Shown here: piece after piece, positions 1 through 59,257 of the stretch
How the letters are laid out: each line of letters begins with the position of its first letter
How positions within the stretch are numbered: position 1 is the first letter of the stretch
Assembly: GCA_964448285.1 (NCBI GenBank)
Contig: CAYUWG010000013.1
Coordinates: 10,970-74,969, forward strand
DNA from: an uncultured Chromatiales bacterium
GTDB lineage: Bacteria; Bacteroidota; Ignavibacteria; SZUA-365
Reading direction: 5' to 3'
Length of the DNA stretch: 64,000 nucleotides
Notes under the pieces: generated by a model
Told to the model about the DNA's origin: nothing
The model's database searches: none
Seen by the model: the letters and a program-made list of their open reading frames with translations, nothing else
Translations under genes and position numbers: made by a program

Positions 1-276
1 AGCAACGGTTCGTATGGTTCGAGGCTGACCGGCGCAGGCTTCGGTGGATGCACAATACATCTCATTCAAGAAGAGAAGAGCAATACATTTATTTCGCAAG
101 TGCTTAATGCTTTCTACACTGCAAAAAGAATACATGCATTCGAACAATCGACTGGAGAAGAATTCCGGGTAGATGATGCTGTCTTCTCGTGTAAACCGGA
201 AATGGGAGCGATGATTGAAAAGCTCGATAGACGCGGGCTTTCTTCTATCTCGAGCGTGGTGGAGGGAGGAGGATAG
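1..276 (+). CDS. galK: galactokinase, C-terminal fragment (gene starts upstream of window)
   Basis: Frame 1 translates to ...GSRLTGAGFGGCTIHLIQEEK...EEFRVDDAVFSCKPEMGAMIEKL, the GHMP-kinase C-terminal motif of galactokinases. Stop TAG at 274-276 overlaps the GTG start of the next ORF. Confidence 0.8.
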   Translation, partial: SNGSYGSRLTGAGFGGCTIHLIQEEKSNTFISQVLNAFYTAKRIHAFEQSTGEEFRVDDAVFSCKPEMGAMIEKLDRRGLSSISSVVEGGG

Positions 277-2105
277 TGTCACCGGATGACAGGCGGCAAT
301 ACCTCATTTCGCTTTGTACGGAATGTGGAAAGCGATACTTCAATGCAGAAACTCGAGTGTGTCTGATCCCGCGGGATACATTGTGGTTTGCGACCGGTTT
401 GGTGTTGAATGGCAGTAAAACAGACCAAGATCTTGGGATGTCATTGATCGAAGAATCAAAAAACGAAGACAACTCCCATACACCGGCGACGATGATCGTC
501 GTGTTGCATGCGCTTCGAGACATTCTTTCTGAAAAAGCAAATGTACATCTTCGATCAGAGATACAGCGGTCGCTCGTTCGTGCTGCACTCGTTGAATGGC
601 ACGACGGAAATGTCAATCATCCATTGGGTGCTTGGTGCACATTGACATGCGGGGGCGAACTATCCGATGAACGTTGGGCGGTAGAACTTGGGTATCAACG
701 ATTGAAGCGGTTCCGCTCGATCATTGGTGACCGACGGCATAGTAATCTTAGGCAAGCGGAGATGTCTGAGTACAATAGTCTGACATACTCGGCACTCGAT
801 ATAATCTTCCTTGCGATCATTGCTGAATATGTTGTTAATCAAGAAACGAAGCATCTCGCTCTTTTCCTAGAGCAACGACTTTGGCTTAACATGGCAATGC
901 AATTCCATGCACCGAGCGGACAGTTCGCAGGACCTCACTCACGTTCCTACATCGATGATTCGCATGGTGGCTATTCAGCGATGCACGCTCTTTGGTATCG
1001 AATCTTCGATAATGTCCGTCTCGATCCTGAAATTCCCAAGACTTATAATCATCCTTCAAATCTGCTTCAAAATGCGATTACTGCTATTACGCCATTGCAC
1101 ATACCTGAGCCGGCGGTCGAGATGGCGTGGAAAAAGCCCTTTCCATATTCATTCAGAAAACGGACATACGGTGAGTCATATCACGAGAATCATTCTGAAA
1201 AGTATTTCGATTCTGAAGTTTATCCCGGCGGATGGAGTGAACTAGTGACATACATGACGCCGGAGTATGCACTCGGAACAGCCTCGTTGCCGTACGTAAA
1301 TGCCGCGCAGTCTGACAGTGTTATTCTAAGAATAAAAAACAAGTTCGGCCATCGTTCAATGTTCTCACGTGCAGTGTTTAATGACTCAGTCGCCGGTCAG
1401 AAAAACCGTTGCCATGTTACGAAGGGACAGATCGATGAAAGCTATCTTTACGAAGAAGGCAGAGTGTTCACAGCCCAGCATAACGGGAAAGCAATCGTTT
1501 GCTATCATCCGAAACGTGCGGGACATACCGGCATCCGGAGTTTTCGCGTGGATATCATTTGCACTTTCGATAAGAGTTTCGAACAGTTGCATATTGGTGA
1601 TATCGAGATGACACATTATCCTCAAGAGTTTCATTCATTGGTACCTATCTTCTTTCAGGATTACCAGACATTCTGTGCGATCGTCCCTTTGATGCTTTCG
1701 CCCTTGAGTAATCCTGCTATGAAAGTGTGGCTAAACAATGGATATTTGATAATATCGCTGATTAACTATGATGGGAAAGAAAAGGATTGCACCAGAGATG
1801 AACTGACTGCGTGGCGTAATGGATTTATTATCAAGGTAGCAGAGTCACGCGAATACACGTCTTTTGATAAATTCAAGGCTTACATAGAAACTACTCGTAT
1901 CGATGATTTGTGGCAAGACCGCGTGCGGACGTTGAAGTATCATGATCAAAATAATACCCTCGCACTTTCCTATGATCCATTCGCAGAACGAATTCTTTTA
2001 TCTACCGTCGATGAAAACGAATGCAAGTACGATGGAATGTTTGTCGAATGTGAGGGATTGAATTCGTTTAGACCGCAAACGTTGTTTGGGAGTGAGGCAC
2101 TGTGA
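276..2105 (+). CDS. hypothetical protein (609 aa), probable glycan-active enzyme in a sugar-utilisation operon
   Basis: Long ORF translationally coupled to galK (TAGTG overlap) and to the downstream permease (GTGA overlap at 2102). No motif I can assign; the family is not recognisable from sequence alone. Confidence 0.5.
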   Translation: MSPDDRRQYLISLCTECGKRYFNAETRVCLIPRDTLWFATGLVLNGSKTDQDLGMSLIEESKNEDNSHTPATMIVVLHALRDILSEKANVHLRSEIQRSLVRAALVEWHDGNVNHPLGAWCTLTCGGELSDERWAVELGYQRLKRFRSIIGDRRHSNLRQAEMSEYNSLTYSALDIIFLAIIAEYVVNQETKHLALFLEQRLWLNMAMQFHAPSGQFAGPHSRSYIDDSHGGYSAMHALWYRIFDNVRLDPEIPKTYNHPSNLLQNAITAITPLHIPEPAVEMAWKKPFPYSFRKRTYGESYHENHSEKYFDSEVYPGGWSELVTYMTPEYALGTASLPYVNAAQSDSVILRIKNKFGHRSMFSRAVFNDSVAGQKNRCHVTKGQIDESYLYEEGRVFTAQHNGKAIVCYHPKRAGHTGIRSFRVDIICTFDKSFEQLHIGDIEMTHYPQEFHSLVPIFFQDYQTFCAIVPLMLSPLSNPAMKVWLNNGYLIISLINYDGKEKDCTRDELTAWRNGFIIKVAESREYTSFDKFKAYIETTRIDDLWQDRVRTLKYHDQNNTLALSYDPFAERILLSTVDENECKYDGMFVECEGLNSFRPQTLFGSEAL

Positions 2106-3004
2106 GGACTCCGAGATCATCAGCAATCGGGTATGCGTTCGTATCTCCATGGCTTTTCGGATTTCTCCTATTGACAGCGGGACCTATGCTGTATTCCTTA
2201 TACCTTAGCTTCACCTCAGCATCCCTATTGAGCCCGCAGCGATGGACAGGTCTTGAGAACTACGAGCAGATGCTTCTCGACGATTCACTCTTCTATGAAA
2301 GCCTTTTGAATACCGTGCATTATGTCGGGTTCTCCGTGCCGCTAGGAATAGTACTTGCGCTCGCGTTAGCCGTATTACTACATCAAAAAGTTCGAGGAAT
2401 TGCATATTTCAGGACAATGTTCTTTCTCCCGTCTGTTACGAATATGGTTGCGATTTCTGTATTGTGGTTGTGGATTTTCAATCCTGAATTCGGACTACTC
2501 AATTCAGTATTATCGTGGTTCGCTATCGAAGGACCCCTGTGGCTGCAAAGTGAAGAATGTTCGAAGCCTGCATTGATTCTCATGTCTCTATGGGGGGTAG
2601 GAGGAATGATGATCATCTTTCTCGCCGCACTGCAAGGTGTTCCAAGTGAACTGTACAAGGCAGCAGAACTTGATGGTGCCGGTTCGTGGGCTCGCTTCCG
2701 CAAGATTACAATACCAATGATTTCTCCTGCTCTCTTTTTCAATCTCATTATAGGAATCATCGGAAGTTTTCAAGTATTCACGCAGGCGTTTGTGATGACA
2801 GGAGGAGCTCAGCCCGGCAGTGAAGGTGGTCCGAACAACTCAACGTTGTTTTTCGTGTTGTATCTCTACAAAAAAGCATTTCAGGAATTCAAAATGGGGT
2901 ATGCTTCCGCTCTCGCTTGGGTACTTTTTGGAATTGTGGCAGTTCTTACCTTTCTGTTAACCCGAACTACGAAGGGGTGGATTCACTATGAAGCAGCGAG
3001 TTAG
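2102..3004 (+). CDS. carbohydrate ABC transporter permease (MalF/UgpA-like)
   Basis: Multi-TM protein with an EAA loop region AAELDGAGSWARFRKITIPMISPALFFNL typical of family-1 sugar ABC permeases. Confidence 0.9.
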   Translation: MRTPRSSAIGYAFVSPWLFGFLLLTAGPMLYSLYLSFTSASLLSPQRWTGLENYEQMLLDDSLFYESLLNTVHYVGFSVPLGIVLALALAVLLHQKVRGIAYFRTMFFLPSVTNMVAISVLWLWIFNPEFGLLNSVLSWFAIEGPLWLQSEECSKPALILMSLWGVGGMMIIFLAALQGVPSELYKAAELDGAGSWARFRKITIPMISPALFFNLIIGIIGSFQVFTQAFVMTGGAQPGSEGGPNNSTLFFVLYLYKKAFQEFKMGYASALAWVLFGIVAVLTFLLTRTTKGWIHYEAAS

Positions 3005-3007
3005 CTA

Positions 3008-3844
3008 ATGCGCCCGAGCATAAAAGCTATTCCGACCTACAGCCTTCTAATTGTCTTTGGGTCTGTATTCTCCCTTCCAGTACTTTGGATGTTGTCTTCC
3101 TCATTACATGAATTAAAAGATATCTTCGTACACCCGTATCGCTGGATACCGTCCGTACTCCGATTTGAAAATTATGAGCGGGCAGTCACTCTGATGACAT
3201 TTTTGAGATATCTCATAAACACACTGATTATTACAATTCCAACGATCGTATTCACTGTCCTTTCGAGTTCCATAGTTGCGTACGGATTTTCACGATTAAA
3301 ATTCAAGGGTCGTGACAAACTCTTTGCGCTTTGTCTTGCTACGATGATGTTACCCGGTCAGGTGACGATGATACCGCTCTATATGGGTTATGCCTCGTTA
3401 GGCTGGGTTGATACATACCTTCCGCTGATCATCCCAGCATTGTTCGGCTCTCCATTTTATATTTTTCTTCTGCGTCAATTCCTTCTTACAATCCCGAAAG
3501 AATATGATGAAGCAGCATTGATGGAGGGAACGAGTCGTCTAAGGATATATTGGAGCATCATTTTACCCCAGGCGAAGCCAGCATTGTTGACGGTTGTCAT
3601 TTTCGCATTCATTGGCTCGTGGAATGACTTCTACGGCCCTCTAGTGTATATCAACTCACCTGAACTAGCGACACTCACGTTGGGACTCAATATGATGAAG
3701 ACACAGATACTCGGATCAGGAACCATCGAATGGAATGTTATGATGGCGGCGTCGATGCTTATCCTTCTGCCGAACGTCATAATCTTCTTTTTTGCTCAAA
3801 AACATTTTGTCACTGGTATCAACATCGGTTCATTGAGAGGGTAG
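3008..3844 (+). CDS. carbohydrate ABC transporter permease (MalG/UgpE-like)
   Basis: EAALMEGTSRLRIYWSIILPQAKPAL EAA motif and six predicted TM segments. Directly follows the first permease. Confidence 0.9.
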   Translation: MRPSIKAIPTYSLLIVFGSVFSLPVLWMLSSSLHELKDIFVHPYRWIPSVLRFENYERAVTLMTFLRYLINTLIITIPTIVFTVLSSSIVAYGFSRLKFKGRDKLFALCLATMMLPGQVTMIPLYMGYASLGWVDTYLPLIIPALFGSPFYIFLLRQFLLTIPKEYDEAALMEGTSRLRIYWSIILPQAKPALLTVVIFAFIGSWNDFYGPLVYINSPELATLTLGLNMMKTQILGSGTIEWNVMMAASMLILLPNVIIFFFAQKHFVTGINIGSLRG

Positions 3845-3851
3845 GATCCTA

Positions 3852-5174
3852 ATGGTCAAATATGGTATCGTTACCATTACCTTCAGCTTTCTCGTTTCGT
3901 GCGGGCGGAATCATGATGATATTCCCGAAGTTGTTTATAACTGCTCTGCGAATACTGTGGAAATCGCTTCACTGCAGGAAGAACTTCCAGCATTCGAAAA
4001 ATCATCGGGAATTCGTATCAAGCTCAGCCCCTTCAGTGGTGATGAGAAGCTGATTGCGATGATCGCAGCAGGACAAGCTCCAGATATATTCTATACCAAC
4101 AACACGATGCGCGATCGCTTTGCCTCAGAAGGACACCTTTTGGATCTAAAATCGATTCCTGAGATGACTTCACTCTTAGAGAAGCTGCGTAAGGTAGATG
4201 TCGACCGCAGTACTTCAGTCGATGGAGGAATCTATGCTCTTAGCAACTGGACATTCACATCCGGTGTGTACTACAACCGTGCGATATTCGATAGTCTGAA
4301 GATCTCATATCCGGATTCATCATGGACATGGGACGAAATGGTCGAGATTGCAAGGCAGCTTACTGTGGATACGAATGGCGATGGAAAAACGGATCGGTAC
4401 GGTATTTTTATCGGAAGCCATTTTATAGAGGCGTTCGAGCAAATGAATCATGCACCAATTCAACGAAACGCATTGTACTTGTCTATTTCCGAGGAGTCAC
4501 AGGAAGTCTATCAGAAATATATGTCGCTCATGAAGGAGGGTATCATGCCCGATCTTCGTCGAGTGCAGGCAATGGGGATGCAGGCTTCGCAGATGCTGGA
4601 AAGTGGCCGAGTTGCTATGCTTGTCGAGGCAGTACCGAACATAGGACTTCAAGAGATGCTGAACATCGATTGGGGTGTTGCTGTACTACCGCGATTCGGT
4701 CAAAAAGTCCCACGGTATTTTCGCGCAGGCAGTGGTGGACTTTCAGTAAGCTTGAAAACGAAAAATATAAGCGCGTCAATACGTACACTTGAGTGGATAA
4801 TTTCGAAAGCGAGATTCTATCAACCCAATCCGATACTATCTGAGAGATCATTTGCAGATGAATGGGAGAAAAAGTACCCTCATCTAAAGAACAGGGGAAT
4901 GCGGGAAGTCTGGCTTGCAAGCGAACGATACGACGGTGGGGATGTACGATACTTTGTACGTTTCTCAAGTTGGACATCACAGTCAATACTTGAGCAACTT
5001 CAACCAAAGCTCGATCAACTGTGGGCTGGAAACCTTATGATTTCTGAGCTGGTCGCATCGGTACCTACCATCAATGCACGAGCGAAGAGAGAACTGGAAG
5101 CGGTTCTGTTGAATCCCGGAATCAAACCGTCGTTCAGGACTGCTATCGAAAGCGAAATTGCACGAAGTCGTTGA
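3852..5174 (+). CDS. extracellular solute-binding protein (family 1 sugar ABC SBP), lipoprotein
   Basis: N-terminal lipoprotein signal ...FSFLVSCG. Size of about 440 aa and position downstream of two permeases. Typical SBP composition. Confidence 0.8.
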   Translation: MVKYGIVTITFSFLVSCGRNHDDIPEVVYNCSANTVEIASLQEELPAFEKSSGIRIKLSPFSGDEKLIAMIAAGQAPDIFYTNNTMRDRFASEGHLLDLKSIPEMTSLLEKLRKVDVDRSTSVDGGIYALSNWTFTSGVYYNRAIFDSLKISYPDSSWTWDEMVEIARQLTVDTNGDGKTDRYGIFIGSHFIEAFEQMNHAPIQRNALYLSISEESQEVYQKYMSLMKEGIMPDLRRVQAMGMQASQMLESGRVAMLVEAVPNIGLQEMLNIDWGVAVLPRFGQKVPRYFRAGSGGLSVSLKTKNISASIRTLEWIISKARFYQPNPILSERSFADEWEKKYPHLKNRGMREVWLASERYDGGDVRYFVRFSSWTSQSILEQLQPKLDQLWAGNLMISELVASVPTINARAKRELEAVLLNPGIKPSFRTAIESEIARSR

Positions 5175-6511
5175 TTATGTTTCGCTTTGACCAGACAGAC
5201 ACTGCGAGCGGTAAAATATTCTACCGTGATGCGTGCATTGCCGAAATAGAAAATCTGAGGATGGGAAACATACGATTTCGGCTGGAAGGGGAAATATCCA
5301 TTGGAATGAACGTCCCCGTCAATCTCTTTTGGCAACAGTATATCAAACATCAGAATCCAGAGAGGAACGCGGGATCGCATGCTAGAATTGAGCATGTAGA
5401 AGCCGGTCACATCCTGAAGTTTAAATGCGTTGGTTCAAACGCGTCCGATGCTTTAGAGAGTGTGTATTATGCAAATGTATCTCTCCGTGATAGCGAGAAT
5501 ATCATATATGATATTGATGCGAGTCTGCGGATTCGCCCGGGTTGTGAATGGTTCATAGAGCCTAATCCACATCACGGTGAATTGGAGTTTTGCCAGGTCT
5601 GGCCGTACCAAACATTCCCTATAGATTCACGCGGGCAAAAGCGGTATGACGCATGCTTGATTCGAAGGAATGATACTTGGCAAAGAATCCCCCATCATCA
5701 CATCGAATCGTCGGACAAGCATAACATCATTCTCAACAGCGGTGATCAGTTTTGCTGGATTATCGAAGATGAAAATCCTGTGGTTGAAATATTCTCAAGG
5801 AACCAAGTATATGCGGGACTTTGCGCATACATGTGGGACGGTCACTTTGGATATCGTGCCCCCCTGAACGGTGTACTTAAAGAAGATGATTCGTTTACTG
5901 CACGGTTTCGTCTCTATTCAATCGACAGAGTGGAGGCTTCGTTGAAATCCCGGATGTCCCAGGAAACGTATCCACAAGAGATAGGAAATACACCGATCGT
6001 ACAAGCGGGGGTCAATACATTTTCTGATACACTGATTACTACACGAATACCGTGGAGACATGTATGGCCTTGGACGTACGAGGTGAAAGGGGCGGCTGAA
6101 TGCTGTCGTGATATATCAGTTGGATACGATGATTCAGCTTCGCTTCGCATCACCTCAAGTGGGGGAGAAGCTCGATGGATGGCTACTACATTTGGATCTG
6201 CTTTCGGCTTTGCGCCACTCCCAGATAACACACATTATCGATTGAGTGCATGGATAAAGACACATGACATTCGTGGGACAGTTCGCCTGCTTATACGAAT
6301 ACATAGAAAGGATATCGGTGATGTATTCGATGTTGAGACATACGATGTATTCTCGTCTATACCGATAGAATCGAGTCTTGAGGACTGGACTATGGTTACC
6401 GTCGAAACACCAAGTATTCACCCGGTACCCGATCGCTTACATATCATCTTGAGCATGAAAGGTGTTGGGACTGTGTGGTTCGATAATGTGTCGTTAAATA
6501 TGGTGGAGTAG
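5171..6511 (+). CDS. hypothetical protein (446 aa), C-terminal beta-sandwich/CBM-like region
   Basis: ORF overlapping the SBP stop (ATGA-type coupling). No recognisable catalytic motif. The C-terminal ~150 aa (..GTVRLLIRIH...VWFDNVSLNMVE) resembles carbohydrate-binding beta-sandwich modules. Confidence 0.45.
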   Translation: MIMFRFDQTDTASGKIFYRDACIAEIENLRMGNIRFRLEGEISIGMNVPVNLFWQQYIKHQNPERNAGSHARIEHVEAGHILKFKCVGSNASDALESVYYANVSLRDSENIIYDIDASLRIRPGCEWFIEPNPHHGELEFCQVWPYQTFPIDSRGQKRYDACLIRRNDTWQRIPHHHIESSDKHNIILNSGDQFCWIIEDENPVVEIFSRNQVYAGLCAYMWDGHFGYRAPLNGVLKEDDSFTARFRLYSIDRVEASLKSRMSQETYPQEIGNTPIVQAGVNTFSDTLITTRIPWRHVWPWTYEVKGAAECCRDISVGYDDSASLRITSSGGEARWMATTFGSAFGFAPLPDNTHYRLSAWIKTHDIRGTVRLLIRIHRKDIGDVFDVETYDVFSSIPIESSLEDWTMVTVETPSIHPVPDRLHIILSMKGVGTVWFDNVSLNMVE

Positions 6512-6516
6512 CATCA

Positions 6517-8553
6517 GTGGATCTTCACCGTCTTCCAACCGGCATGATGATGTGGTCGATCACGGACGAAGTGATAGAAAATCCGTTGACTCGTGCGACG
6601 CAGTTCAAGGATATACAAACGGCTGGTTTTGACGGTGTAGCGATTTTCGTGCGTTGTAGCCGGTACTCCTGGGATGAGGCGGAAGCGATCGGTGCACAGA
6701 CACATATTCAGGATATGTGCAGAGAGAAGGGTATGCATTTGTGGATCGGTGCAGATCCTCGAATGATGAGGCCGTTCGATGAGCGGTGGTCTGGTGCTAA
6801 TGTGCTTCTATTTGGGAATTGCCCTATGGCAGGTGATGCCTCGAATCTTGTACAGGTTGTCAATGGCCGTTTTTCCGTGCGATGTGAATATCATCCGCGT
6901 CCGGTGCATACGCTTCGCGACTGTGCCGTGGATTATTTACCACTCGGTATTACGAAAGTGTACGCCGTAAGGAGGAATAAACAACCTCTCACTGCAACTG
7001 ATATACAGGATATAACATCCACAGCACATTATTTTATCAACGCTCGTGACCGATATGTTGAAGCTCACGGATTTTACGATCATCCAAAGGATGAACGATG
7101 GTCCGTTGTCGCTTTTTTCCATTTTGCAACCAACCATTTCGACTTTTCCAATCCTATTCATCTATCGCATTATGAAAACAGATTGAAAAAGGTGAGCGAT
7201 GCTGGGTTAAGACCGTATGGCATTCAGTGGGATGAACCCGGTTATACATGTATCATGGGAAGTCTTCCATTTACGCCCGTAATCCGGGAAACATTCAGGG
7301 ATCGAACAACACAACCGTTAAAGGATCTCCTATGGAAGCTTGTATTCGAAGTAGATGACGAATCACACATCACGGTTCGCAAGATTTACTATTCGTTAGT
7401 GCAGGAAACAGTCGATAACGCCAGAATGCGATGCATCACATTCGCACAAACGCTATGGGGCGAAGGATTGATGGAAGGCATACACGATTCGTGGAGATGG
7501 GAATCTGCCGATATGAGTGATATGAATCATGGAAGCCTTGACCTTTGGCGTGCAGGTAAAAACCGCAACGGTGGATACATCGATCTTGGTAGCGTCAACT
7601 TATTGCGCGAAGCACAATCGCCCTTTTACAAAAATCTCGCAACGGTGTTGATTGCAGGAACATCTTTAGCGCGCAACAGCAACCTTCCAGTTGTGTTCAA
7701 CAATCTTTGGACTTCCGGTGACGATGAAGGACGCGGTTGGCAAGTCGAGGTGCTGGCGCATTGCGTCAGGGCAATGGCACTCTTTGGGCACAGATGGATT
7801 GCGCATATCTACGGTCCCGCCGGCATCCTTGGGCAGGAACGATCATTTCTGGGATTACCCGATACTCCCGGTTATCCCACTCATAATACCTGGCTTGCTT
7901 TTCCGGAGTGGTTAGAAATTCTGAAAAGACATCATTCGGCAATAGCACACCAATTACCCTTCTCGAATCTTCTGGTTGTATTTCCAGTCGAAACGATGTA
8001 CGCATTAGCGGATGCACGCGCCAACGTTGCCGCGAGTGATATATTCAATTTGTTGCTTGCGCTGCTCGATTGTAACTACCACGTGGAACTGGCAGCACCG
8101 TCGAGCTTAGAGAGAGCTTACTGGCAGGGGGGTCATTTCTTCTACAATGAACGAGCTTACGACGCAGTTGTCTATCCGTGGCCGAACGTCTTACCGGAGA
8201 ATTGCAAATTGCTGATTGGTGCCGACTACAGAAGGATGATCTTCGCGTTTTCCATGCCGCAGAAAACCGTTCAAAACGAACCGGTGCTTATATTCGATAA
8301 ACCGGAAATGGAGATACAAGCAGTGCTTGACAGACTTTCGTCGTTTTCGACACTCCGACCAGTCGCTGTGCCTCAAAACACATGGGTGACTATGACCAAC
8401 AATGGAGAAGGTACAGTCATCAGTGTGATGCCTTCGAGGGTAGGAGGATCGTTCAGCGGAGTCATTCAATACGAAGGGAGAGAATACACTATACTTGATG
8501 AGCATGGTCTCATTCGGCTATTATTCACGGGGGACGGCGTTAGGATAATATGA
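6517..8553 (+). CDS. hypothetical protein (678 aa), probable glycan-active enzyme
   Basis: Long ORF in the same operon with 5-nt spacing. Unknown family. Confidence 0.45.
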   Translation: MDLHRLPTGMMMWSITDEVIENPLTRATQFKDIQTAGFDGVAIFVRCSRYSWDEAEAIGAQTHIQDMCREKGMHLWIGADPRMMRPFDERWSGANVLLFGNCPMAGDASNLVQVVNGRFSVRCEYHPRPVHTLRDCAVDYLPLGITKVYAVRRNKQPLTATDIQDITSTAHYFINARDRYVEAHGFYDHPKDERWSVVAFFHFATNHFDFSNPIHLSHYENRLKKVSDAGLRPYGIQWDEPGYTCIMGSLPFTPVIRETFRDRTTQPLKDLLWKLVFEVDDESHITVRKIYYSLVQETVDNARMRCITFAQTLWGEGLMEGIHDSWRWESADMSDMNHGSLDLWRAGKNRNGGYIDLGSVNLLREAQSPFYKNLATVLIAGTSLARNSNLPVVFNNLWTSGDDEGRGWQVEVLAHCVRAMALFGHRWIAHIYGPAGILGQERSFLGLPDTPGYPTHNTWLAFPEWLEILKRHHSAIAHQLPFSNLLVVFPVETMYALADARANVAASDIFNLLLALLDCNYHVELAAPSSLERAYWQGGHFFYNERAYDAVVYPWPNVLPENCKLLIGADYRRMIFAFSMPQKTVQNEPVLIFDKPEMEIQAVLDRLSSFSTLRPVAVPQNTWVTMTNNGEGTVISVMPSRVGGSFSGVIQYEGREYTILDEHGLIRLLFTGDGVRII

Positions 8554-10850
8554 GTGGATCCGTATGGACGATTCCATTCGATGATATTGGGAACGGTGCG
8601 TCGATACTACAATTGTCTCGGGACATCGATGCACCGTGTATCGTCTCGATCGAATGCGACGCCGGGTTCTATCCGTTAGAGAAACACTTTCGGTATGCCA
8701 GGCATGAAGGGGGGAATGCACCCTACACGTTTTCGCATTTTGGTTTCTGCTCTTCACCACCAGGAATTCTCGTTGGACCATGGCCGGGATGGAGAGATAT
8801 CGAACAGATGCCGCGAGTATCTATCTCTTTTGCGGAGAAGCAGATTCCCGGTCAATACCAATTTTACGGTGATGAACTGGTGACACGAGTGCTGAACCTC
8901 ACATTTAGAGTAAGCGAGATGTGCGACCTAAAACCCGTCTTGCATATCAGTGATCATCGAATTCGTCCAACGAAATGTACGATTCGACGAGTCCCTGATA
9001 ATCGTACAATCCCGATAGCAGTATCGTTGATTGAAGAAATGCAGGGTATGCACCCACGTCTGTTTATCACACCAACGACTATAGATACCTTTTGGAACAG
9101 AGCGTTGACATCTCATCGCGAGCTCCATAATAGAATTGTGGAACTTCTCGATAACTGGGAACTGCCTCCTGATAAAACTCCGGAATCCAAACTTCCTGCA
9201 GGTCCGGAGCGGTTGTTCGCTGAAGACCGTGTTGTTCTCTCTGCACTACAAACTCTGCTGTTTCCTTCCGAACAGCATCTTGAAAGAGCGATCGATGCTT
9301 TGCTTGATTACGTAACTCTCACTCAACGAGATGACTATGAGCCGCTTCGGATAGATACGCAAAGTGGTGAGGTTCTTTTTACACTCTGTATCGGGTACGA
9401 CTGGCTCCATCGTGATTTGAATGACCATCAGAGATCGATCGTTGAGTCGCGTTTGAATGAAGTCGCACAGGTATGTTTGAATCATTTGCCGGAAACGAGA
9501 ACGGATTATGCGCAAGCACATTTTCTCGGTTGTGGATTGGGTTTGCTCGCGTACGCGTTTCTTCTTTGGGAAGATGATGCCATGGCGCCAAACCTTGCGG
9601 CGAGAATGAGAGGAGCGTTGGAGCGCGTGATCAACCTTCTTCCCGACGATGGATTCTTTCCACATGGAATCAATCTCTGGAGCTATGAACATGGTTTTCT
9701 CTTTCGATGGTTGGAATTATTTCGCTGTTGTACCGGCGAAAATCTTTGGGAGGGATTTCGATACTGGAAAAATGCCTCACGATTTCGCGCTTCTGTAACT
9801 TCGTCCGATTGGACGACCGCTATTACGTTAGGCGATCCACAGTATCGTGTCGGAGGCGATTCCTGGTGCCATGACCTGGTCGCGGCTCGAACGAAATCCC
9901 GGCAAGCTCAGTCACTCGCGAACGCATTGAGGGATCTGCCGGTCGATGGAGTGGATTATCGGCATGCTTCTGCGAGAAGGCGAGTGTGGGAATTTCTCTT
10001 TCACGATCCGGTCATCGAGCCTTATGAAAGGAATAATGGAATTCAGGTTTTCCATGATGGTGGACAAGTCAATGCCCGACATGGGAAAAGACTTGTCGTA
10101 TTCCGGAGCGGTGCACCGCTTGGAAAGAGCCGACGCGATGGCGGAGAGCTTGGAGCGTATGGCCATAGCGATCCAGGCAATGGCGGATTGCTCGTCCATG
10201 ATGGTGAGGACTTTATCCTGAGCGGTCCTGGACCGAGTTATTGGAGATCGACGTCTTTACACAACATTATCATCATCAATGGTAGAGGGCAATTCGGTGA
10301 TTCCTGCGTATGGCTACCGGATGTTTTTCCTGAGAGTGCCATTCCCGCTGAGCCGATAATTCATGAAAGCGAAGAATGTGTTTCTATTTTCGCCGAGCTT
10401 ACACGAGCGTATCTCCCCTCAGTTGGAGTCAAATCGTATGTTCGCGCACTGTTTATCGCTCCCGAAATCATCATTGGAGTCGATTCAATTTCGTTGAACA
10501 TACAGTCCGATATAGCACTGAATTTCCATTCATGGGGATCGTTCATACGAAATTCAGATGGAGTCTGGAGGATCAATGGAAAGAGCGAGAACTATGAGCT
10601 TCACTTTTTCTCCCGAACAGCTTTCAACGTAGAATGTGGTCTGACAGAGTTCGTCCCTGCGTACCCGCATAGCGGCACCAGAGATTCATTTCTACGGATG
10701 ACCGTTTTTGCTGATGAAGAATGCATGTGCTGGTTTCTCGGATCGGCGCCGATATCACGGCCCACCATCGTACATCGCAATGATCACATCCTGCTGACGT
10801 GCGGCAAGAGACACGTAAAGTTCAGCAGTGCAGGCTTGATGGAGTGCTGA
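8550..10850 (+). CDS. heparinase II/III-like (polysaccharide lyase-like) protein, tentative
   Basis: 766 aa. N-terminal helical region (ALLDYVTL..DWLHRDL), then ..GAYGHSDPGNGGLLVHDGEDFILSGPGPSYW, reminiscent of the H-x-H-x-D region of the Hepar_II_III C-terminal beta-sandwich. Assignment is weak. Confidence 0.4.
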   Translation: MSGSVWTIPFDDIGNGASILQLSRDIDAPCIVSIECDAGFYPLEKHFRYARHEGGNAPYTFSHFGFCSSPPGILVGPWPGWRDIEQMPRVSISFAEKQIPGQYQFYGDELVTRVLNLTFRVSEMCDLKPVLHISDHRIRPTKCTIRRVPDNRTIPIAVSLIEEMQGMHPRLFITPTTIDTFWNRALTSHRELHNRIVELLDNWELPPDKTPESKLPAGPERLFAEDRVVLSALQTLLFPSEQHLERAIDALLDYVTLTQRDDYEPLRIDTQSGEVLFTLCIGYDWLHRDLNDHQRSIVESRLNEVAQVCLNHLPETRTDYAQAHFLGCGLGLLAYAFLLWEDDAMAPNLAARMRGALERVINLLPDDGFFPHGINLWSYEHGFLFRWLELFRCCTGENLWEGFRYWKNASRFRASVTSSDWTTAITLGDPQYRVGGDSWCHDLVAARTKSRQAQSLANALRDLPVDGVDYRHASARRRVWEFLFHDPVIEPYERNNGIQVFHDGGQVNARHGKRLVVFRSGAPLGKSRRDGGELGAYGHSDPGNGGLLVHDGEDFILSGPGPSYWRSTSLHNIIIINGRGQFGDSCVWLPDVFPESAIPAEPIIHESEECVSIFAELTRAYLPSVGVKSYVRALFIAPEIIIGVDSISLNIQSDIALNFHSWGSFIRNSDGVWRINGKSENYELHFFSRTAFNVECGLTEFVPAYPHSGTRDSFLRMTVFADEECMCWFLGSAPISRPTIVHRNDHILLTCGKRHVKFSSAGLMEC

Positions 10851-12997
10851 CGCGGCAATTCAATTTCGGTTCTCTTGTAGATCAGGGTTGCTGGATTTCC
10901 TATGATCGTGTCAATGCGTTTTTATCGCTGGATGGCGTGAAGGAAATCGGTTATCATGGACGGCAACCGGTCAGTAAAAACTCACGGGTCCTGGTATCGC
11001 AACACGCTGTTTTGAGTTTTGAATATCGTCCCAAGGGAGAAACGGGAAAAGCGCTGCGCTTCGACCAAGTGGAGTGGTCGCCATCGAACGTCATTACTGA
11101 GTCGATCGATGGACCTTCGATTCGAATGACCACAAAACACAGAAGCTTGGGAATTCAGGTTCGAAACACCGCGCACAAAGACATCGAATTCGTCATTCAT
11201 TTTCACCGTGCCTCATGTCACGCGGAAATACACGGGGAAAGGTTCTGGTCACAACCGGTTGTCCATGGATCGGAGATCACAATGCATTTTCGTGACAGGA
11301 TCATCTTGCACGATTGGTTGAAAAGAACCGGGCCGTATGCTGGTGATTTTCTTATTCCCGAACCTTGGCGCAGAGTGTTGTTCGTAAGACCCATCGTATC
11401 TGGAAATGCAACGATCGACGATGTGAAGTCGGAGTATAGGGAATCGCTCGTGCCGCTTTACGATGTGACAACGTACATGAAACTTGGTGGCAGTCATTAT
11501 CGACCCAAGGTGTTGGACGACGTGATCAGTTTCTCCTCGTCGATAGAGCCATCCGATACTGTGGAGTTTCATGTTGCCTTTTCCGATACCGAGGCGAACA
11601 GTCATATCGGTATTGTAACGGAACATGAACGAATGCAATCCGATCGTGATGCACCGCAGTTGACCCTGGAAGGATTTTCGCACATAGAACGATTCTTCTC
11701 AAACGTTCCAGACTTGATTGATTCATGCCGTGTTACGGATCTTGGAATGACTCGTGCGAGCGCAGGTGCGTACTACTGGATTTGGGCATGGGACAACATC
11801 ATCACCGCGATGGAGTATCCCCGATGGAGCGCTCTCGGTCCGATGGAACAGACGGTCGAATTTTTAAACGCTCATCGTGATGTGAACGGTCTTATTCCTA
11901 TGCGATGGACTCGCGATCTGCTGCCACTCGATACCCCGGCGCGCGGTGGTTTGGAATCACTCTTCGGAATCCTCGTCCATAATCTTCTCCTCAATGGCGG
12001 TTCACGACAATATATTCTGTCTGCTTATCCGTTTCTTGTTACGCACCTCGATGAGACCACGAACATGACGGATGAATACGGGCGGTTCAGGTCGTTAGGC
12101 TTCTATCCGGATTTACCCCTGCGGCTTGGCAGAACCGAAAATTCCGCCGTTGCGATGGAATGTGCGTTGCAGTATGCATTCTGTCGTGCTTTGTCGAAGG
12201 TCGCGATGGAAATAGGTGATGATGCAGTGTCAGAACGTTCACGAATTGCCGCCGCGCGGATACATCGTTTTTTCCTCGAAAATTTCTGGTCGCAACAGTA
12301 TGGCTTCGTGTGTGATTCAATCGATGTCGTGACGAATCAGCAATTGGAAAGCTTTCCTCTCTACTCATTTGCATTTCTGCTCTTGCCGGAGGCGATCGAT
12401 TTGCTTCAGGATCGGGTGGCGGACATTGCAAACGTCATCGAACGGAACCACCTCACGCCGAATGGTATCAGGACGGTTCCATCCTGGGATAGAAACGCTC
12501 ATACCGAATCAGTCATGTCTGCATGGTATCCGTGCTGGGATTTTGCAGCGGTGAAATTCCTTCGTCAAGCCGGTCGCTCGGAAGCAATCATGCATTGGAT
12601 GAACAGCGTGGAGGAGACTCTTCAGCATTTCGGTTACTGTCCGGAGTTTCTCTCGATGGATAATTTCGATGCTTCTGATATCGGCTCATGGAAACGTCAC
12701 GGTGCGGCGTCCAATCTCAATTGCGTCACCGGATGGTTTCGAGCTTTGATAGAAGGATTGACCGGCGTTGAGTTTCACGCGAATGGACTAACCGTAATGC
12801 CGTGCAAACTTCCCATAAACGAATTGGAACTCAACGGTATTCATCATCTTCAGACGGTGTGGCGTATCACCGTTATAAATGGTGAAGGTGAAACGTGTCG
12901 GCTTGAAATAGACGGCGAACAGTTGCAATCTCTCGATGTGAGCAGACGGTATTTCGACGGTAATGCTCGCCATCTAACAATCCGCTACGGGTCGTGA
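10799..12997 (+). CDS. six-hairpin (alpha/alpha-toroid) glycoside hydrolase-like protein, tentative
   Basis: 732 aa. The region GAYYWIWAWDNIITAME...GLESLFGILVHNLLLNGG resembles the catalytic (alpha/alpha)6 domains of GH63/GH78/GDE-type enzymes. True start may be internal, since the first 52 nt overlap the previous ORF. Confidence 0.4.
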   Translation: MRQETRKVQQCRLDGVLTRQFNFGSLVDQGCWISYDRVNAFLSLDGVKEIGYHGRQPVSKNSRVLVSQHAVLSFEYRPKGETGKALRFDQVEWSPSNVITESIDGPSIRMTTKHRSLGIQVRNTAHKDIEFVIHFHRASCHAEIHGERFWSQPVVHGSEITMHFRDRIILHDWLKRTGPYAGDFLIPEPWRRVLFVRPIVSGNATIDDVKSEYRESLVPLYDVTTYMKLGGSHYRPKVLDDVISFSSSIEPSDTVEFHVAFSDTEANSHIGIVTEHERMQSDRDAPQLTLEGFSHIERFFSNVPDLIDSCRVTDLGMTRASAGAYYWIWAWDNIITAMEYPRWSALGPMEQTVEFLNAHRDVNGLIPMRWTRDLLPLDTPARGGLESLFGILVHNLLLNGGSRQYILSAYPFLVTHLDETTNMTDEYGRFRSLGFYPDLPLRLGRTENSAVAMECALQYAFCRALSKVAMEIGDDAVSERSRIAAARIHRFFLENFWSQQYGFVCDSIDVVTNQQLESFPLYSFAFLLLPEAIDLLQDRVADIANVIERNHLTPNGIRTVPSWDRNAHTESVMSAWYPCWDFAAVKFLRQAGRSEAIMHWMNSVEETLQHFGYCPEFLSMDNFDASDIGSWKRHGAASNLNCVTGWFRALIEGLTGVEFHANGLTVMPCKLPINELELNGIHHLQTVWRITVINGEGETCRLEIDGEQLQSLDVSRRYFDGNARHLTIRYGS

Positions 12998-14784
12998 TGT
13001 TCGAGCCATTGCTCGAAAATCTCGATGCATGGATAGAGACGGAGACAGATTTGCTTCGCTTCCGCTCAGAAGATTTTAAAGACAATTCAAATGCACAAAA
13101 ACGTGGTGTCGATTTTCGTCGGTCGATAGCGATGCTTACTGATCAGGAAGCGATGATCGGCTGTGAGCTAACCAATGCCTCGAATGATGATATCAGAGTG
13201 AGACGCATAGCAGCGTTCGATTACGCACCGGACTGGGTTACTGATGGATTGCTTACTGTATCGAGTCAGACATGCGTCATCACATTTCCCGCAGAGCGTG
13301 CTTATGGTTACGACGGATCACATTCCGTGACCGATAATCAACCGCTGGTTTCATTCTGGTGGCTTGCGATCCACGACCCGCGAACAGAGAGAAATGTATG
13401 CATGGGAGTGATCTCACCGCCTTCGTCACTCGTCCGGTTTCACATTACTCCGCTGCTGTCTTCGACGGAATCGAAGCGCGTCTTGCGTGTGCGTTGTGAG
13501 ATGGATTGTTTGAGTGGAAGGCGCGGTGTCAGGCTTTCACGAAAGGAAGCTTTCACACCGGGCGAGATCTATCTTTCAACATGGGAAGGGAGATACAATT
13601 CCGGAATGAGAAGAATGGCGGAACGTATGCGAGAGCGCATTCAGCGAAAGCCGAATTCGACGCCGAAGGTTGCGTGGTGTTCATGGTATGCGGGTTACGA
13701 GTCGAATATTACGGAGAGCGAAATAGATGTAAACATGACGAACGCCCACGCCATCGAAGGACTTGATACCATCCAAATCGATGACGGATGGACTTCCGGA
13801 AATGGGTCGCGAAAGCTTGGCGAAATAGAAATCGATCAAGCGAAATTTCCGTCCGGTATGAGCGCTCTTGCTGCACGCATCCATGCAAAGGGATTCCATC
13901 CGGGAATTTGGTTGCGCCCATTTCAGCGATGGGAGTCGAACGATGCACCGACGTGGGCGAAAGACACCTTCGACCTCTCGCATCCCGACGCGTTGGCGTG
14001 GTTAAAAGCGCTTTCATCGGCGATTGCGGGATGGGGATATGATTACCTGAAGATCGATTTTCTGACGTACGATTATTTCGAAAGCTGGGGGATGGAATTG
14101 CTTGACATGCGCGGAATTTCATTTCATCCATACGACGATACAATCACCAATGTACAGATGTACGGAAACGGTTTGCGAGCATTGAGAGAGGGATTTGGTG
14201 ATGAACGTTTTCTGCTCGGGTGTAATTGTCTTCTCGCCCCTGCCCTTGGAATCGTGGATGGGATGCGGATCGGTGATGACGTGAGTGCAGGCAACTGGGA
14301 AAGAACGTTCCTGATGGGTGTACGCTCGGTTGCCCCGTTGCAATTTCTTAATCGACACGTTTGGTGGAACGATGCGGATTGCATGTTTACGCATGAACCT
14401 TTGACCATTCGGCGAGCAACGTTGTGGAATAACTTTGTCGCCTTTGCGGGAGGATTGCGCGTTCTCAGCAGCAAGCTCCACGACTTGGATGAAAAGCGAC
14501 GAGTACTGATCAATGATGCGTTGCGCATGACTTACGGTGCAACGTTACCGTTGGATTTTCCCGAACATGATGTCCCGTCGTTGTGGTTGAAAAAAAACGA
14601 GTCGGGGGCCACTCTCGGAGTTTTCAATTGGTCGGAGGAAACGCAGCAAATCGCGGTCGCTGAGTCCAAGCTCGATGGATGGATTTTCTCGGATGAAGAG
14701 AAGAACATGGTGGGTGATGGTGTTCACAGGTTCGAGCTTGAATCGGAATCATTTTGCATCGTGCCTTTAGTCGAACGATCATGA
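12994..14784 (+). CDS. alpha-galactosidase (clan GH-D, GH36/GH27-like)
   Basis: CSWYAGYESNITE...LDTIQIDDGW...KFPSGMSALAARIHAKGFHPGIWLRPF...YDYLKIDFL carries the melibiase/alpha-galactosidase catalytic-domain hallmarks (DDGW, K-x-D nucleophile region). Confidence 0.75.
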   Translation: MMFEPLLENLDAWIETETDLLRFRSEDFKDNSNAQKRGVDFRRSIAMLTDQEAMIGCELTNASNDDIRVRRIAAFDYAPDWVTDGLLTVSSQTCVITFPAERAYGYDGSHSVTDNQPLVSFWWLAIHDPRTERNVCMGVISPPSSLVRFHITPLLSSTESKRVLRVRCEMDCLSGRRGVRLSRKEAFTPGEIYLSTWEGRYNSGMRRMAERMRERIQRKPNSTPKVAWCSWYAGYESNITESEIDVNMTNAHAIEGLDTIQIDDGWTSGNGSRKLGEIEIDQAKFPSGMSALAARIHAKGFHPGIWLRPFQRWESNDAPTWAKDTFDLSHPDALAWLKALSSAIAGWGYDYLKIDFLTYDYFESWGMELLDMRGISFHPYDDTITNVQMYGNGLRALREGFGDERFLLGCNCLLAPALGIVDGMRIGDDVSAGNWERTFLMGVRSVAPLQFLNRHVWWNDADCMFTHEPLTIRRATLWNNFVAFAGGLRVLSSKLHDLDEKRRVLINDALRMTYGATLPLDFPEHDVPSLWLKKNESGATLGVFNWSEETQQIAVAESKLDGWIFSDEEKNMVGDGVHRFELESESFCIVPLVERS

Positions 14785-15815
14785 CATATCCGGATCGCAT
14801 CGAAACAACTGAACAACTCGAAGATGTGATGACCATGCCCTGCGAAGAGCTTATCGCATCTATTGCGCGACTCGATGGAGATATCATGATTCTCGGTGCA
14901 GGTGGGAAGATGGGCCCTACTCTCGCACGACTCGCGCTTCGCGCAATGGATAAAGCGGAAATCGGAAAACGCGTTATCGCGGTCTCACGCTTTACGGAAG
15001 CGAGAGCCTTGCACAAGCTGAAAAAAATAGGAGTGGAAACGATCGCGTGCGATCTTCTCGAGCGATCCGCGTTAGATGCACTCCCGGATGTCGAGAACAT
15101 CATCTTTATGGCTGGAAGGAAGTTCGGTTCGACGGGAAACGAAGCATTGACCTGGGCGATGAACGCGTATTTGCCGGGCATGGTGATGCAGCGATTTGCC
15201 AGGTCGCACATCGTCGCACTTTCAACAGGAAATGTTTACCCATTCACACACGTCGCCTCAGGTGGCTCGCTTGAAACGGACTCACTTGCTCCGGTCGGTG
15301 AGTACGCACAGTCCTGCCTCGGTCGTGAAAGAATCATTCAGTATTGGTCGGAGAACAACGGGACGCCAGTGTGCATAATCCGTCTGAATTACGCGATCGA
15401 CCTGCGTTACGGAGTACTGCTCGATATCGCACAACGAGTGTGGACAAGAAGACCGGTCGATCTCCGAATGGGTTATGTGAACGTGATCTGGCAGGGCGAT
15501 GCGAACACCGCGATTCTCATGGCATTCGAGCGATGCTCACAGCCGCCTGAGGTTTTAAATATGACCGGTCCGGAGGTGATTTCCGTTCGATCGGTGGTAG
15601 AGCGTTTTGGAGCGTTGCTCGGTACCGATGCTCGGTTCGATGGCGTTGAACAATCCACCGCACTGCTTTCGAATGCATCACGATTTCATCAGGAAATGCA
15701 GTTCAAAAAACTCCCGCTTGAAACAATGCTCCAATGGACTGCGAATTGGCTCATCGCGAACGGGGAGACGTTAGATAAACCGACTCATTTCGAAGAAAGG
15801 ACAGGTGTATTTTAA
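14781..15815 (+). CDS. NAD-dependent epimerase/dehydratase family protein
   Basis: Rossmann motif ILGAGGKMGPTLARLAL near the N-terminus. Start taken at ATG 14781 (ATGA overlap with the alpha-galactosidase stop) rather than the track start 14754. Confidence 0.8.
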   Translation: MTYPDRIETTEQLEDVMTMPCEELIASIARLDGDIMILGAGGKMGPTLARLALRAMDKAEIGKRVIAVSRFTEARALHKLKKIGVETIACDLLERSALDALPDVENIIFMAGRKFGSTGNEALTWAMNAYLPGMVMQRFARSHIVALSTGNVYPFTHVASGGSLETDSLAPVGEYAQSCLGRERIIQYWSENNGTPVCIIRLNYAIDLRYGVLLDIAQRVWTRRPVDLRMGYVNVIWQGDANTAILMAFERCSQPPEVLNMTGPEVISVRSVVERFGALLGTDARFDGVEQSTALLSNASRFHQEMQFKKLPLETMLQWTANWLIANGETLDKPTHFEERTGVF

Positions 15816-15956
15816 TCAATGAATCGACGGCATTCGTCGTACATCTCATGTACTGGGAATGAAAAAGTGACCTCACGTTGTTCTTTCCTCAACTTAAACC
15901 TCGGTATCTTTGCGTCGTCCTACTCACGATCACTGTACAGTCACGAAAAACTCCTC

Positions 15957-18776: not shown

Positions 18777-18799
18777 CATTTAGCAATCTCTGAAAGAAA

Positions 18800-18826
18800 A
18801 AAGGGCGCGATGAGCGCCCTTTTCGT
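18800..18826 (+). terminator. rho-independent terminator after the TonB receptor gene
   Basis: aaaaaaGGGCGCgatgaGCGCCCttttcgtttt: a GC stem followed by a T-run, 25 nt after the stop. Confidence 0.6.
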
Positions 18827-18908: not shown

Positions 18909-19598
18909 TCAGCCTCGTTCAAGTCGCTGAATCTCGCTGTTGATCTGAATGAGCACTTCGGGATTGCCGATCTCCCCGTCTAGACTGAAAACAATGAAAA
19001 CCTTTCCGCCATACGTTTGAGTAAATTCTTCAAAGCTGGCTTTCATGCGCTCGGAGAGCGAATACCCACCGAAATTTGCTTTTGCGGTAACAGGTTTGAT
19101 TTGAATCCCGAAAGCCTTGTCTCCTACCCATCCTAAGTAGTCTATGTCCCCCGCATGATCCAGTTGAGGCGATGACTCTTCAAACGTGATGGATGGAAAC
19201 TTCTTGCTCAGACCATCAGTGACGACGGACTTCTCAGTGACATAACCGTCGTAGGTACGGTTAATTGTGAGATTGTAAATGAAATCGATGCAGTCGTCGA
19301 GAGTTAGTGTTCGGAATGCCTCTTGCCATTCCGGAATAAGGAACTCGGTAATCTTGGTATACAGCCGTTCACCAAGCTCTTGCAAACTTTCCTTTGTAAC
19401 CTTGTGCGGAACCTTCGTTTTTGTATGAGCGTGCTCAAAGTACCACTGTTCCCATTCCTTGAATGTCTTGGGTTGACACTCCCTAATGAGAGCCATTACC
19501 TCGCCGACCTTGTGTGTCTTTGTAAGACCCCATTTCCCATTCGCATAGTTCAAGACCATTTCTTTGGTCCCAAAATCCTTGGAGTATTTTTTAGGCAT
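18909..19598 (-). CDS. putative type II restriction endonuclease (PD-(D/E)xK-like), partner of adjacent methyltransferase
   Basis: 229-aa ORF starting at ATG 19598 (track start 19673). ATG overlaps the MTase stop by 8 nt (ctgcATGCCTAA), i.e. translational coupling. Candidate D...(Q/E)xK element GDIDYLGWVGDKAFGIQIKP. Confidence 0.45.
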   Translation of the reverse strand: MPKKYSKDFGTKEMVLNYANGKWGLTKTHKVGEVMALIRECQPKTFKEWEQWYFEHAHTKTKVPHKVTKESLQELGERLYTKITEFLIPEWQEAFRTLTLDDCIDFIYNLTINRTYDGYVTEKSVVTDGLSKKFPSITFEESSPQLDHAGDIDYLGWVGDKAFGIQIKPVTAKANFGGYSLSERMKASFEEFTQTYGGKVFIVFSLDGEIGNPEVLIQINSEIQRLERG

Positions 19599-20904: not shown

Positions 20905-20976
20905 ACTTCCTGAACCAATGTACTGAATCTCAATCACATTTGCTGGTTCTTTGCGCAAGAGAAACGCCACCAGTTC

Positions 20977-21266: not shown

Positions 21267-21294
21267 GCTCGTGAGCGGCGGCCGCTTAGGTCTA

Positions 21295-59255: not shown

Positions 59256-59257
59256 CA

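Follow-up and report, generated by a model that had tools for sequence, protein, structure and literature searches.

A Co-Conserved Sugar Importer and Five Candidate Glycan-Degrading Enzyme Families in Uncultured Ignavibacteria and Related Bacteria

The DNA analyzed here (hereafter the window) is a stretch of 64,000 nucleotides from an uncultured bacterium of the GTDB lineage Ignavibacteria, SZUA-365 (assembly GCA_964448285.1, contig CAYUWG010000013.1, forward-strand positions 10,970 to 74,969). We found that it opens with an operon in which eight consecutive genes form a conserved module: two encode ATP-binding cassette (ABC) permeases, one a solute-binding protein (SBP) and five large enzyme-like proteins, which we call A to E. 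In the reading that we prefer, and to which we give a probability of roughly 55%, this is a self-contained, horizontally mobile catabolic module, the importer and cytoplasmic enzymes of which would dismantle an acidic, galactose-containing oligosaccharide.

The Eight-Gene Module and Its Conservation

A preliminary description of this DNA had proposed a plus-strand carbohydrate operon at 276-14784, and we confirmed that the operon is real. According to the open reading frame (ORF) listing, it consists of 12 tightly packed plus-strand genes within the first 18.8 kb of the window, from the 3' end of galK to a terminator, and independent gene calls on near-identical contigs, from two separate public assemblies of close relatives, return the same gene order. 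The extent first given holds for the genes named in it up to the α-galactosidase-like gene F, but it ends there, while the epimerase (G) and receptor (H) genes of the same description reach 18776.

The module itself comprises A (276-2105, 609 aa), permease genes 1 (2102-3004) and 2 (3008-3844), the SBP gene (3852-5174), B (5177-6511, 444 aa, or 446 aa from a TTG at 5171), C (6517-8553, 678 aa), D (8550-10850, 766 aa) and E (10844-12997, 717 aa, or 732 aa from a GTG at 10799), all on the plus strand. Read from the sequence, the junctions show GTGA overlaps at A/permease 1 and E/F, ATGA at C/D and TTGA at SBP/B, which bears out the GTGA/ATGA translational coupling noticed before. The stop codon of galK and the start of A share a single nucleotide (taGTG); when likely starts are used the overlaps measure 1-7 nt, and the remaining intergenic gaps are 3-7 nt. 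A promoter scan was uninformative, with 21 sites against 25 expected. For each of the genes A-E there are 150-280 full-length relatives (33-50% identity) that share dozens of invariant residues, those of A, B and C being drawn, at about 35-50% identity, from a collection of 5.8 billion protein clusters; we therefore regard A-E as real genes and not as chance ORFs. By eye, none of the five proteins has an apparent N-terminal signal peptide.

To follow the module across taxa, one genome per GTDB species was scanned with the C family by means of two peptide patterns, which divergent copies may escape, and 47 loci were obtained. The arrangement A-perm-perm-SBP-B-C-D-E is complete and in the same order in 21 of these species-representative loci, and the five enzymes occur together in 24; contig ends truncate most of the other loci. 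The hosts are without exception uncultured metagenome-assembled genomes (MAGs), which carry the depositors' labels Ignavibacteriota/Ignavibacteria, unclassified "Bacteroidota", "Cytophagia", KSB1/Zhuqueibacterota and Caldithrix, and some protein matches are labelled Rhodothermales. MAGs of the KSB1 type have a rearranged version, D-A-E-perm-perm-B-C, in which D is missing in some cases, and one MAG contains two copies of the module. In one locus (L053), the module lies between an integrase gene, directly upstream of it, and a penicillin-binding protein gene, and on account of these flanks we consider the module self-contained.

Standing of the Five Families in Sequence Libraries

Neither Pfam nor NCBIfam has a match to A, B or C. 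Against PDB sequences, the three proteins gave noise only when searched singly (best E 0.2); when their family profiles were run against the whole PDB sequence set (up to 2026), A and B remained without a match and C obtained one at chance level (E 0.59). In the searches of the 5.8-billion-cluster collection, every source-named relative of the three is a 'hypothetical protein', and none carries a Pfam domain, the sole exception being an isolated PF14852 flag on one relative of A (the count is zero among the 120 listed relatives of C). D and E can be connected to known superfamilies, but it takes their family profiles to do so. This agrees with the earlier proposal that A-E are candidates for uncharacterized glycoside hydrolase (GH) or polysaccharide lyase (PL) families, where 'unclassified' is judged against Pfam, NCBIfam and PDB sequences, with CAZy/dbCAN families outside that comparison.

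Some or all of the five proteins might thus already belong to CAZy families that have neither a Pfam or NCBIfam model nor a structure, which would make this an ordinary utilization locus. CAZy families without structures do exist, our placement relies on the three libraries just named, and D and E fall clearly within known superfamilies. Even so, we hold this explanation to be improbable in view of the uniformly hypothetical relatives of A, B and C and of PDB-wide profile searches empty of credible matches for them; moreover, literature searches on Ignavibacteria and KSB1 brought up no account of this cluster.

Proteins A and D: Predicted Lyase Folds

The AlphaFold model of A (predicted local distance difference test, pLDDT, 94.8; predicted template modeling score, pTM, 0.93) consists of an N-terminal helical toroid (residues 3-286) and a C-terminal β-sandwich (291-592). 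In Foldseek searches, which like all our fold searches used PDB structure libraries, all 24 matches with E<=1e-3 are lyases of the same fold class, with TM values of 0.3-0.46. By its model, A has the helical-toroid and β-sandwich architecture of PL8/PL12/PL15 lyases and is very remote from them. It shares with the PL8 and PL12 enzymes (chondroitinase AC, 1HM2; heparinase III, 5JMF/4FNV; hyaluronate and xanthan lyases) an incomplete α/α toroid followed by an antiparallel β-sandwich, but differs from them in its smaller size of 609 aa and cannot be linked to any lyase by sequence or by profile. The invariant residues N114-H115, Y166/Y171 and H303 have a spacing reminiscent of PL15 and PL35, as a matter of sequence spacing and not of three-dimensional superposition. 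We also considered whether A is a paralog of D or E and rejected this (profile-profile probability of 0.5% or lower; 0.5% against the D family by hhalign). As to the start of the gene, the gene caller on the near-identical contig L001 begins A at an ATG equivalent to window position 438 (555 aa). The GTG at 276 is nevertheless the likelier start, since residues 8-54 of the 609-aa form show family-wide conservation and have pLDDT >93 in the model.

The window copy of D scores 19.3 bits on Hepar_II_III_C, under the cut-off of 24, whereas at the family level all 26 aligned members match this domain (PF07940), the best at 3.7e-11. The family profile matches PL15 Atu3025 (3A0O, 3.6e-14) and a glycosaminoglycan (GAG) lyase (8KHV, 6.4e-11), the PL35 identity of which is taken from PMC12088678, and also dermatan-sulfate epimerase, PL39 and PL21 heparinase II. 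Judged from these profile matches, D is a remote member of the heparinase II/III superfamily, nearest to PL15 and PL35. Like PL15 Atu3025 and the PL35 GAG lyases (8KHV/8KHW), it combines an N-terminal α/α toroid, homologous to that of PL15/PL35 according to the family profile, with a Hepar_II_III_C sandwich; unlike in these enzymes, about 160 residues at its N-terminus have no counterpart. Three residues of possible catalytic relevance, His324, Tyr379 and His539, are invariant. His324 aligns with the catalytic H311 of Atu3025, and His539 is part of YGHSDP, an invariant motif with which the Hepar_II_III_C-matching region begins. Tyr379 follows His324 by 55 residues; the corresponding His/Asn-to-Tyr spacing in PL15 and PL35 is 54 (PMC12088678).

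Proteins C, E, and B

The AlphaFold model of C, built from 120 relatives (pLDDT 91.7, pTM 0.93), shows a (β/α)8 barrel followed by α/β and β-sandwich domains. Both this model and that of A have carbohydrate-enzyme folds. We place C, from its model, as a clan GH-A TIM barrel with GH42-like domains: the barrel and the following domains can be superposed over 466-505 residues on GH42 β-galactosidases, GH164, GH35 IaSGT and GH153 PgaB. Unlike GH42 and other GH-A enzymes, C has no Glyco_hydro_42 or other GH-A match in Pfam or NCBIfam and no credible PDB-profile match, and it carries a β-rich insertion of about 110 residues after strand 3. Clan GH-A enzymes have an NEP motif with the acid/base residue after strand 4. 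In C, an invariant W-D-E-P-G directly follows this strand (226-228 of the model), which puts DEP at the modelled position of NEP; candidate nucleophiles are E320 and E432 (numbering of the 669-aa form). A gene of the C family occurs alone, with the rest of the module absent, in five loci with full flanks (L007, L026, L029/L052, L031 and L040), and C may thus have a function outside the module as well. Next after the C gene of L052 comes an unassigned gene for 355 aa.

Protein E can be related to the six-hairpin enzymes in a similar way to D and its superfamily. The window copy scores 23.3 bits on MGH1-like_GH against a cut-off of 27 and is also sub-threshold on GDE_C, while 18 of 26 family members match MGH1-like_GH (best 1e-8) and seven match Bac_rhamnosid6H. 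The family profile finds the C-terminus of GH94 (1e-5), GH78 and GH37, in a range of 1e-5 to 2e-3. E would accordingly share an (α/α)6 domain with the six-hairpin families GH63 MGH1-like, GH78, GH37 and GH94, and its C-terminal region matches that of cellobiose phosphorylase; what sets it apart is that all its matches stay under the family thresholds. Most relatives have a C-terminal extension of about 80 aa that the window copy lacks. On sequence grounds, E appears to be a remote six-hairpin superfamily member, either glycosidase- or phosphorylase-like.

For the B family, only 349 relatives came out of a profile search that covered 1.84 billion representative proteins exhaustively, and no Pfam family covers the core, an undescribed region of about 300 aa in which certain His, Lys, Glu, Trp and Cys residues never vary. 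Its distant relatives carry fusions to ConA-like domains (Laminin_G_3, 3-keto-disaccharide-hydrolase-like) and to carbohydrate-binding module (CBM) domains, and a few match CBM_4_9 weakly over the part that aligns with the C-terminus of B. The C-terminus is thus probably a CBM4_9-like β-sandwich.

Importer, Galactose Branch, and Outer-Membrane Receptor

Both permeases match BPD_transp_1, the first with UgpA/GlcT/MalF-like and the second with UgpE/GlcU/MalG-like NCBIfam hits, and the SBP matches SBP_bac_1 and has the N-terminus MVKYGIVTITFSFLVSCG, with a lipobox (LVSC). From these matches we assign the three proteins to a CUT1 carbohydrate ABC importer, made of two MalFG/UgpAE-type permeases (UgpA/MalF-like and UgpE/MalG-like) and a family-1 solute-binding lipoprotein. 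There is no ATPase gene in the window operon, a dedicated ATPase being optional for CUT1; a MalK-type ATPase gene follows the module in four related loci.

Only the 3' end of galK lies in the window (1-276, plus strand, stop TAG 274-276; the product reads ...GAGFGGC...). The full gene on contig L001 scores 274 bits on the galactokinase model TIGR00131 (cut-off 227). In the lineage of the window, a gene for a sugar-1-phosphate nucleotidyltransferase is located upstream of galK; the assemblies of close relatives show GFO/IDH/MocA, CN_hydrolase and NTP_transferase genes at this place. Downstream of E, F (12997-14784, alternative start 12994, plus strand, 595 aa) encodes a melibiase-like protein of the GH27/GH36-type α-galactosidase family, with 30.5 bits on PF02065 Melibiase (cut-off 27) and 27.4 on PF16499 Melibiase_2 (cut-off 23), although only about 85-105 residues are matched. 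It is followed by G (14781-15815, plus strand, 344 aa), a member of the NAD-dependent epimerase/dehydratase family (PF01370, 38.4 bits) that was also called as a gene in the related assembly L054.

Two related loci, L043 and L047, have a gene similar to F after E, and four more have one upstream on the opposite strand. In four other cases, a GH4 gene that scores 454 bits on an α-galactosidase model is inserted between C and D (L017:11926-13437, L024:12202-13341, L025:11725-13485 and L049:12023-13336). The GH4 gene in these loci and the melibiase-like gene after E in the window, L043 and L047 are possibly a non-orthologous replacement of one step. Counting the window, an α-galactosidase of either type adjoins the module in at least 11 loci. 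The pointer to a galactose-containing glycan in the preliminary description is in this way strengthened by the galactokinase, the nucleotidyltransferase, the melibiase-like F, the epimerase and the GH4 genes of related loci, and its domain calls for galK, the permeases, the SBP, D, E, F, G and H agree with Pfam and NCBIfam.

The last gene of the operon, H (15867-18776, plus strand, 969 aa), codes for an outer-membrane protein with a TonB-dependent-receptor-like barrel and a CarboxypepD_reg domain. It scores 108 bits (7e-31) on OMP_b-brl_3 and 29.4 bits on TonB_dep_Rec_b-barrel (cut-off 27), and its Plug domain reaches 20 bits, under the cut-off of 23.9. A strong intrinsic-terminator-like hairpin (18799-18823, plus strand; 10-bp stem with six GC pairs, T-rich tail) closes the operon after H. 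The co-occurrence of an ABC importer and a TonB-dependent receptor had been singled out as worthy of attention, which we do not uphold: H is joined to the module only in the lineage of the window, and an outer-membrane receptor beside an inner-membrane ABC importer is ordinary for diderm bacteria. A SusC/SusD-type polysaccharide utilization locus was considered as well and rejected, no SusD-like Pfam match being present in the window operon or among the recurrent neighbors of related loci.

Proposed Pathway and Substrate

In our model, the lipoprotein SBP and the CUT1-type importer would carry an oligosaccharide into the cytoplasm, and the five enzymes, which appear to lack signal peptides, would break it down there stepwise. 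A, by its PL8/PL12-like shape, and D, as a relative of PL15/PL35 with a conserved His, would represent a uronate-cleaving lyase fold, whereas C, the GH-A TIM barrel with DEP, and E, the six-hairpin barrel, would be the glycosidase-fold enzymes; B may contribute an undescribed domain with a CBM-like tail. In the lineage of the window, H would take the oligosaccharide across the outer membrane, and F, the galactokinase, the sugar-1-phosphate nucleotidyltransferase and G would channel the galactose set free, or a similar sugar, into central metabolism. The substrate is most likely an acidic (uronate-containing), α-galactosylated hetero-oligosaccharide from plant or microbial exopolymers.

Additional hints come from the gene neighborhood, for which 106 same-strand neighbors of the module were scanned. 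The most recurrent are CN_hydrolase and GFO/IDH/MocA oxidoreductase genes (six loci each), followed by GH4 and the MalK-type ATPase (four each) and by glycerate kinase, a short-chain dehydrogenase/reductase (SDR) with KduD-like scores and an SSF transporter (three each). An N-acylglucosamine 2-epimerase-like gene is found on the same strand in two loci, and its ORF cluster spans four, with one examined copy on the opposite strand. The CN_hydrolase gene (nitrilase superfamily), located upstream of galK at L001:586-1482 and present in five other loci, encodes a protein like N-carbamoylputrescine amidase or deaminated-glutathione amidase, far under the equivalog cut-offs, and the GFO/IDH/MocA neighbors are inositol/levoglucosan-dehydrogenase-like. 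Hints of acid-sugar metabolism in related loci consist of a PfkB kinase, the KduD-like SDR, glycerate kinase and a weakly GH88-like protein. It is because of the lyase folds and of these neighbors in some genomes that we take the substrate to contain uronate, and this step is the weakest of the model.

Two more unassigned proteins, of about 778 and 460 aa, flank both copies of the module in one MAG and the module in L020 (L003:143-2479 and 20447-21820; L051:1-1404 and 20358-21746; L020:1-2430 and 19491-20912). The smaller one gives a weak GH88 hint only, in L020. Both may be extra members of the pathway in that lineage.

Several observations weigh against this model. The equivalents of Tyr365 and Arg314 of PL15 are not aligned in D: the hidden Markov model alignment puts the catalytic Tyr365 on the invariant Leu376, assigning the catalytic role to Tyr379 takes a 3-residue shift that we infer from sequence, and R314 of Atu3025 aligns with a Gly. 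Among heparinase II/III-like folds there is, besides lyases, an epimerase (dermatan-sulfate epimerase). The core of B has no fold assignment and its enzymatic nature is assumed, and for all members of the five families it is we who infer the activity. Accessory genes that hint at acid sugars are confined to 3-6 loci and absent from the window, the CN_hydrolase (six loci), GFO/IDH/MocA (six) and N-acylglucosamine 2-epimerase-like (about 2-4) genes have no place in the model, and no secreted depolymerase is linked to the module.

The mismatches at the PL15 catalytic Tyr and at R314 in D, the absence of detectable similarity between A and any lyase at the sequence level and the lack of a uronate-pathway gene in the window would suit a neutral oligosaccharide or glycoside as the substrate, with A and D acting as hydrolases, epimerases or non-catalytic binding or scaffold proteins. 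The recurrent neighbors can be read along the same lines, as they include neutral-sugar enzymes (GH4, melibiase-like, galactokinase and the inositol/levoglucosan-dehydrogenase-like GFO/IDH/MocA proteins). We nevertheless consider a neutral substrate rather unlikely: all significant fold matches of A and all sequence matches of D, bar one epimerase, are uronate-acting lyases, the putative catalytic set of D (His324, Tyr379, His539) is invariant, and PfkB, SDR and glycerate-kinase genes do adjoin the module in some loci.

If uronate is retained, the partner sugar might differ from galactose. In a GAG-like substrate, uronate would alternate with N-acetylhexosamine, as in heparosan- or chondroitin-like fragments of capsules or exopolysaccharides; the 478-aa GHMP kinase would then be a GalNAc kinase, F an α-N-acetylgalactosaminidase, and the nucleotidyltransferase and epimerase would serve UDP-GalNAc/GlcNAc salvage. 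Such roles find some backing in the nearest structural or sequence relatives of A and D, among them heparinase III, exo-heparinase, PL35 GAG lyases, chondroitinases and dermatan-sulfate epimerase. About 2-4 loci moreover have an N-acylglucosamine 2-epimerase-like gene (454 bits) in the vicinity of the module, and the best NCBIfam match of the nucleotidyltransferase is a GlmU-type model. GH27 and GH36 also contain α-N-acetylgalactosaminidases, which counts in the same direction. However, the kinase passes the galactokinase model, the GH4 neighbor scores as an α-galactosidase, no GH88, GH89, sulfatase or deacetylase gene is fixed in the module, and the same lyase folds act on alginate, xanthan, ulvan and hyaluronan too. 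A GAG-like substrate therefore seems to us quite improbable.

Finally, the module might not be catabolic at all, but remodel or make a cytoplasmic glycan or compatible solute, e.g., by transglycosylation or phosphorolysis in the synthetic direction. Its tight coupling to an importer with a lipoprotein SBP, in the window joined by an outer-membrane receptor, galactokinase and a Leloir-type set, and the lack of a glycosyltransferase fixed in the module make this very unlikely, and we retain import and catabolism of an acidic, galactose-containing oligosaccharide as the preferred function.

Genomic Setting and Mobility

The operon is situated in a block of low GC content, which amounts to 0.445-0.52 over the operon and the next 10 kb (window 1-27300) versus mostly 0.51-0.57 beyond 28 kb (28000-64000). 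Directly past the terminator, on the other strand, lies a restriction-modification pair (18909-20970, minus strand), which is also present in L054 and is composed of an MjaI-family endonuclease (18909-19673) and a fusion of an N6/N4 DNA methylase with a staphylococcal-nuclease-like domain (19591-20970). Further into the block, a gene for an HNH endonuclease of 299 aa (24290-25189, minus strand) is located between an M1-peptidase-like gene and small unassigned ORFs, and an integrase fragment (26718-27251, minus strand) stands at the end of the block. Taken together with the integrase next to the module in L053, the low GC, the restriction-modification pair, the HNH gene and the integrase fragment suggest that the module may have been acquired horizontally.

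Other features of the window lie beyond this block. They include a 2113-aa ORF of Ig-like repeats (29246-35587, minus strand; HYDIN/ASH/DUF1573/Cep192-like), probably a large surface or adhesin-type protein, and a tRNA-Gly (GCC) gene (59183-59256, plus strand). A PhoD-like phosphatase (39833-41665, plus strand) carries a Por_Secre_tail sorting domain of type IX secretion, which is consistent with a host of the Bacteroidota/Ignavibacteriota group.

Comparison With Known Systems and Significance

Gram-positive-style cytoplasmic pathways for xanthan or pectin fragments combine a CUT1 importer with an intracellular lyase, an unsaturated-uronyl hydrolase, glycosidases and a phosphorylase. The module resembles them in that it would import an oligosaccharide and dismantle it with a mixture of lyase-fold and glycosidase-fold enzymes. 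Yet, A-E all fall outside the families on which those pathways rely. The host is a diderm bacterium of the Fibrobacteres-Chlorobi-Bacteroidetes (FCB) group, and the module has neither a SusC/SusD pair nor a secreted depolymerase linked to it. Sugar operons that pair an ABC importer with intracellular enzymes are a well-known arrangement; what is new is the enzyme set, in which three co-conserved families lack sequence relatives across Pfam, NCBIfam and the PDB and two more stand at the far edges of known superfamilies.

A farther-reaching interpretation, which we offer tentatively and regard as doubtful, is that the module constitutes a complete, previously undescribed route for a glycan without known degradation and has spread horizontally among uncultured FCB bacteria of soils, fens and sediments. 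A, B and C would then found three CAZy families, one with a lyase fold, one with a GH-A fold and one with a new catalytic fold, and D and E would represent new families or subfamilies. If, on the other hand, dbCAN already classifies A-E, the locus would be merely another sugar utilization operon.

Uncultured Ignavibacteriota, KSB1 and their relatives are common in soils, fens and sediments, and their carbon breakdown is largely deduced from known CAZy families. In two dozen species-level genomes of these bacteria, five enzyme families are inherited together, three of which are invisible to annotation based on Pfam, NCBIfam and the PDB. The module thus offers a compact target in which a new substrate specificity and several new CAZy families may be found, and its characterization would improve the annotation of hundreds of metagenomic 'hypothetical proteins'.

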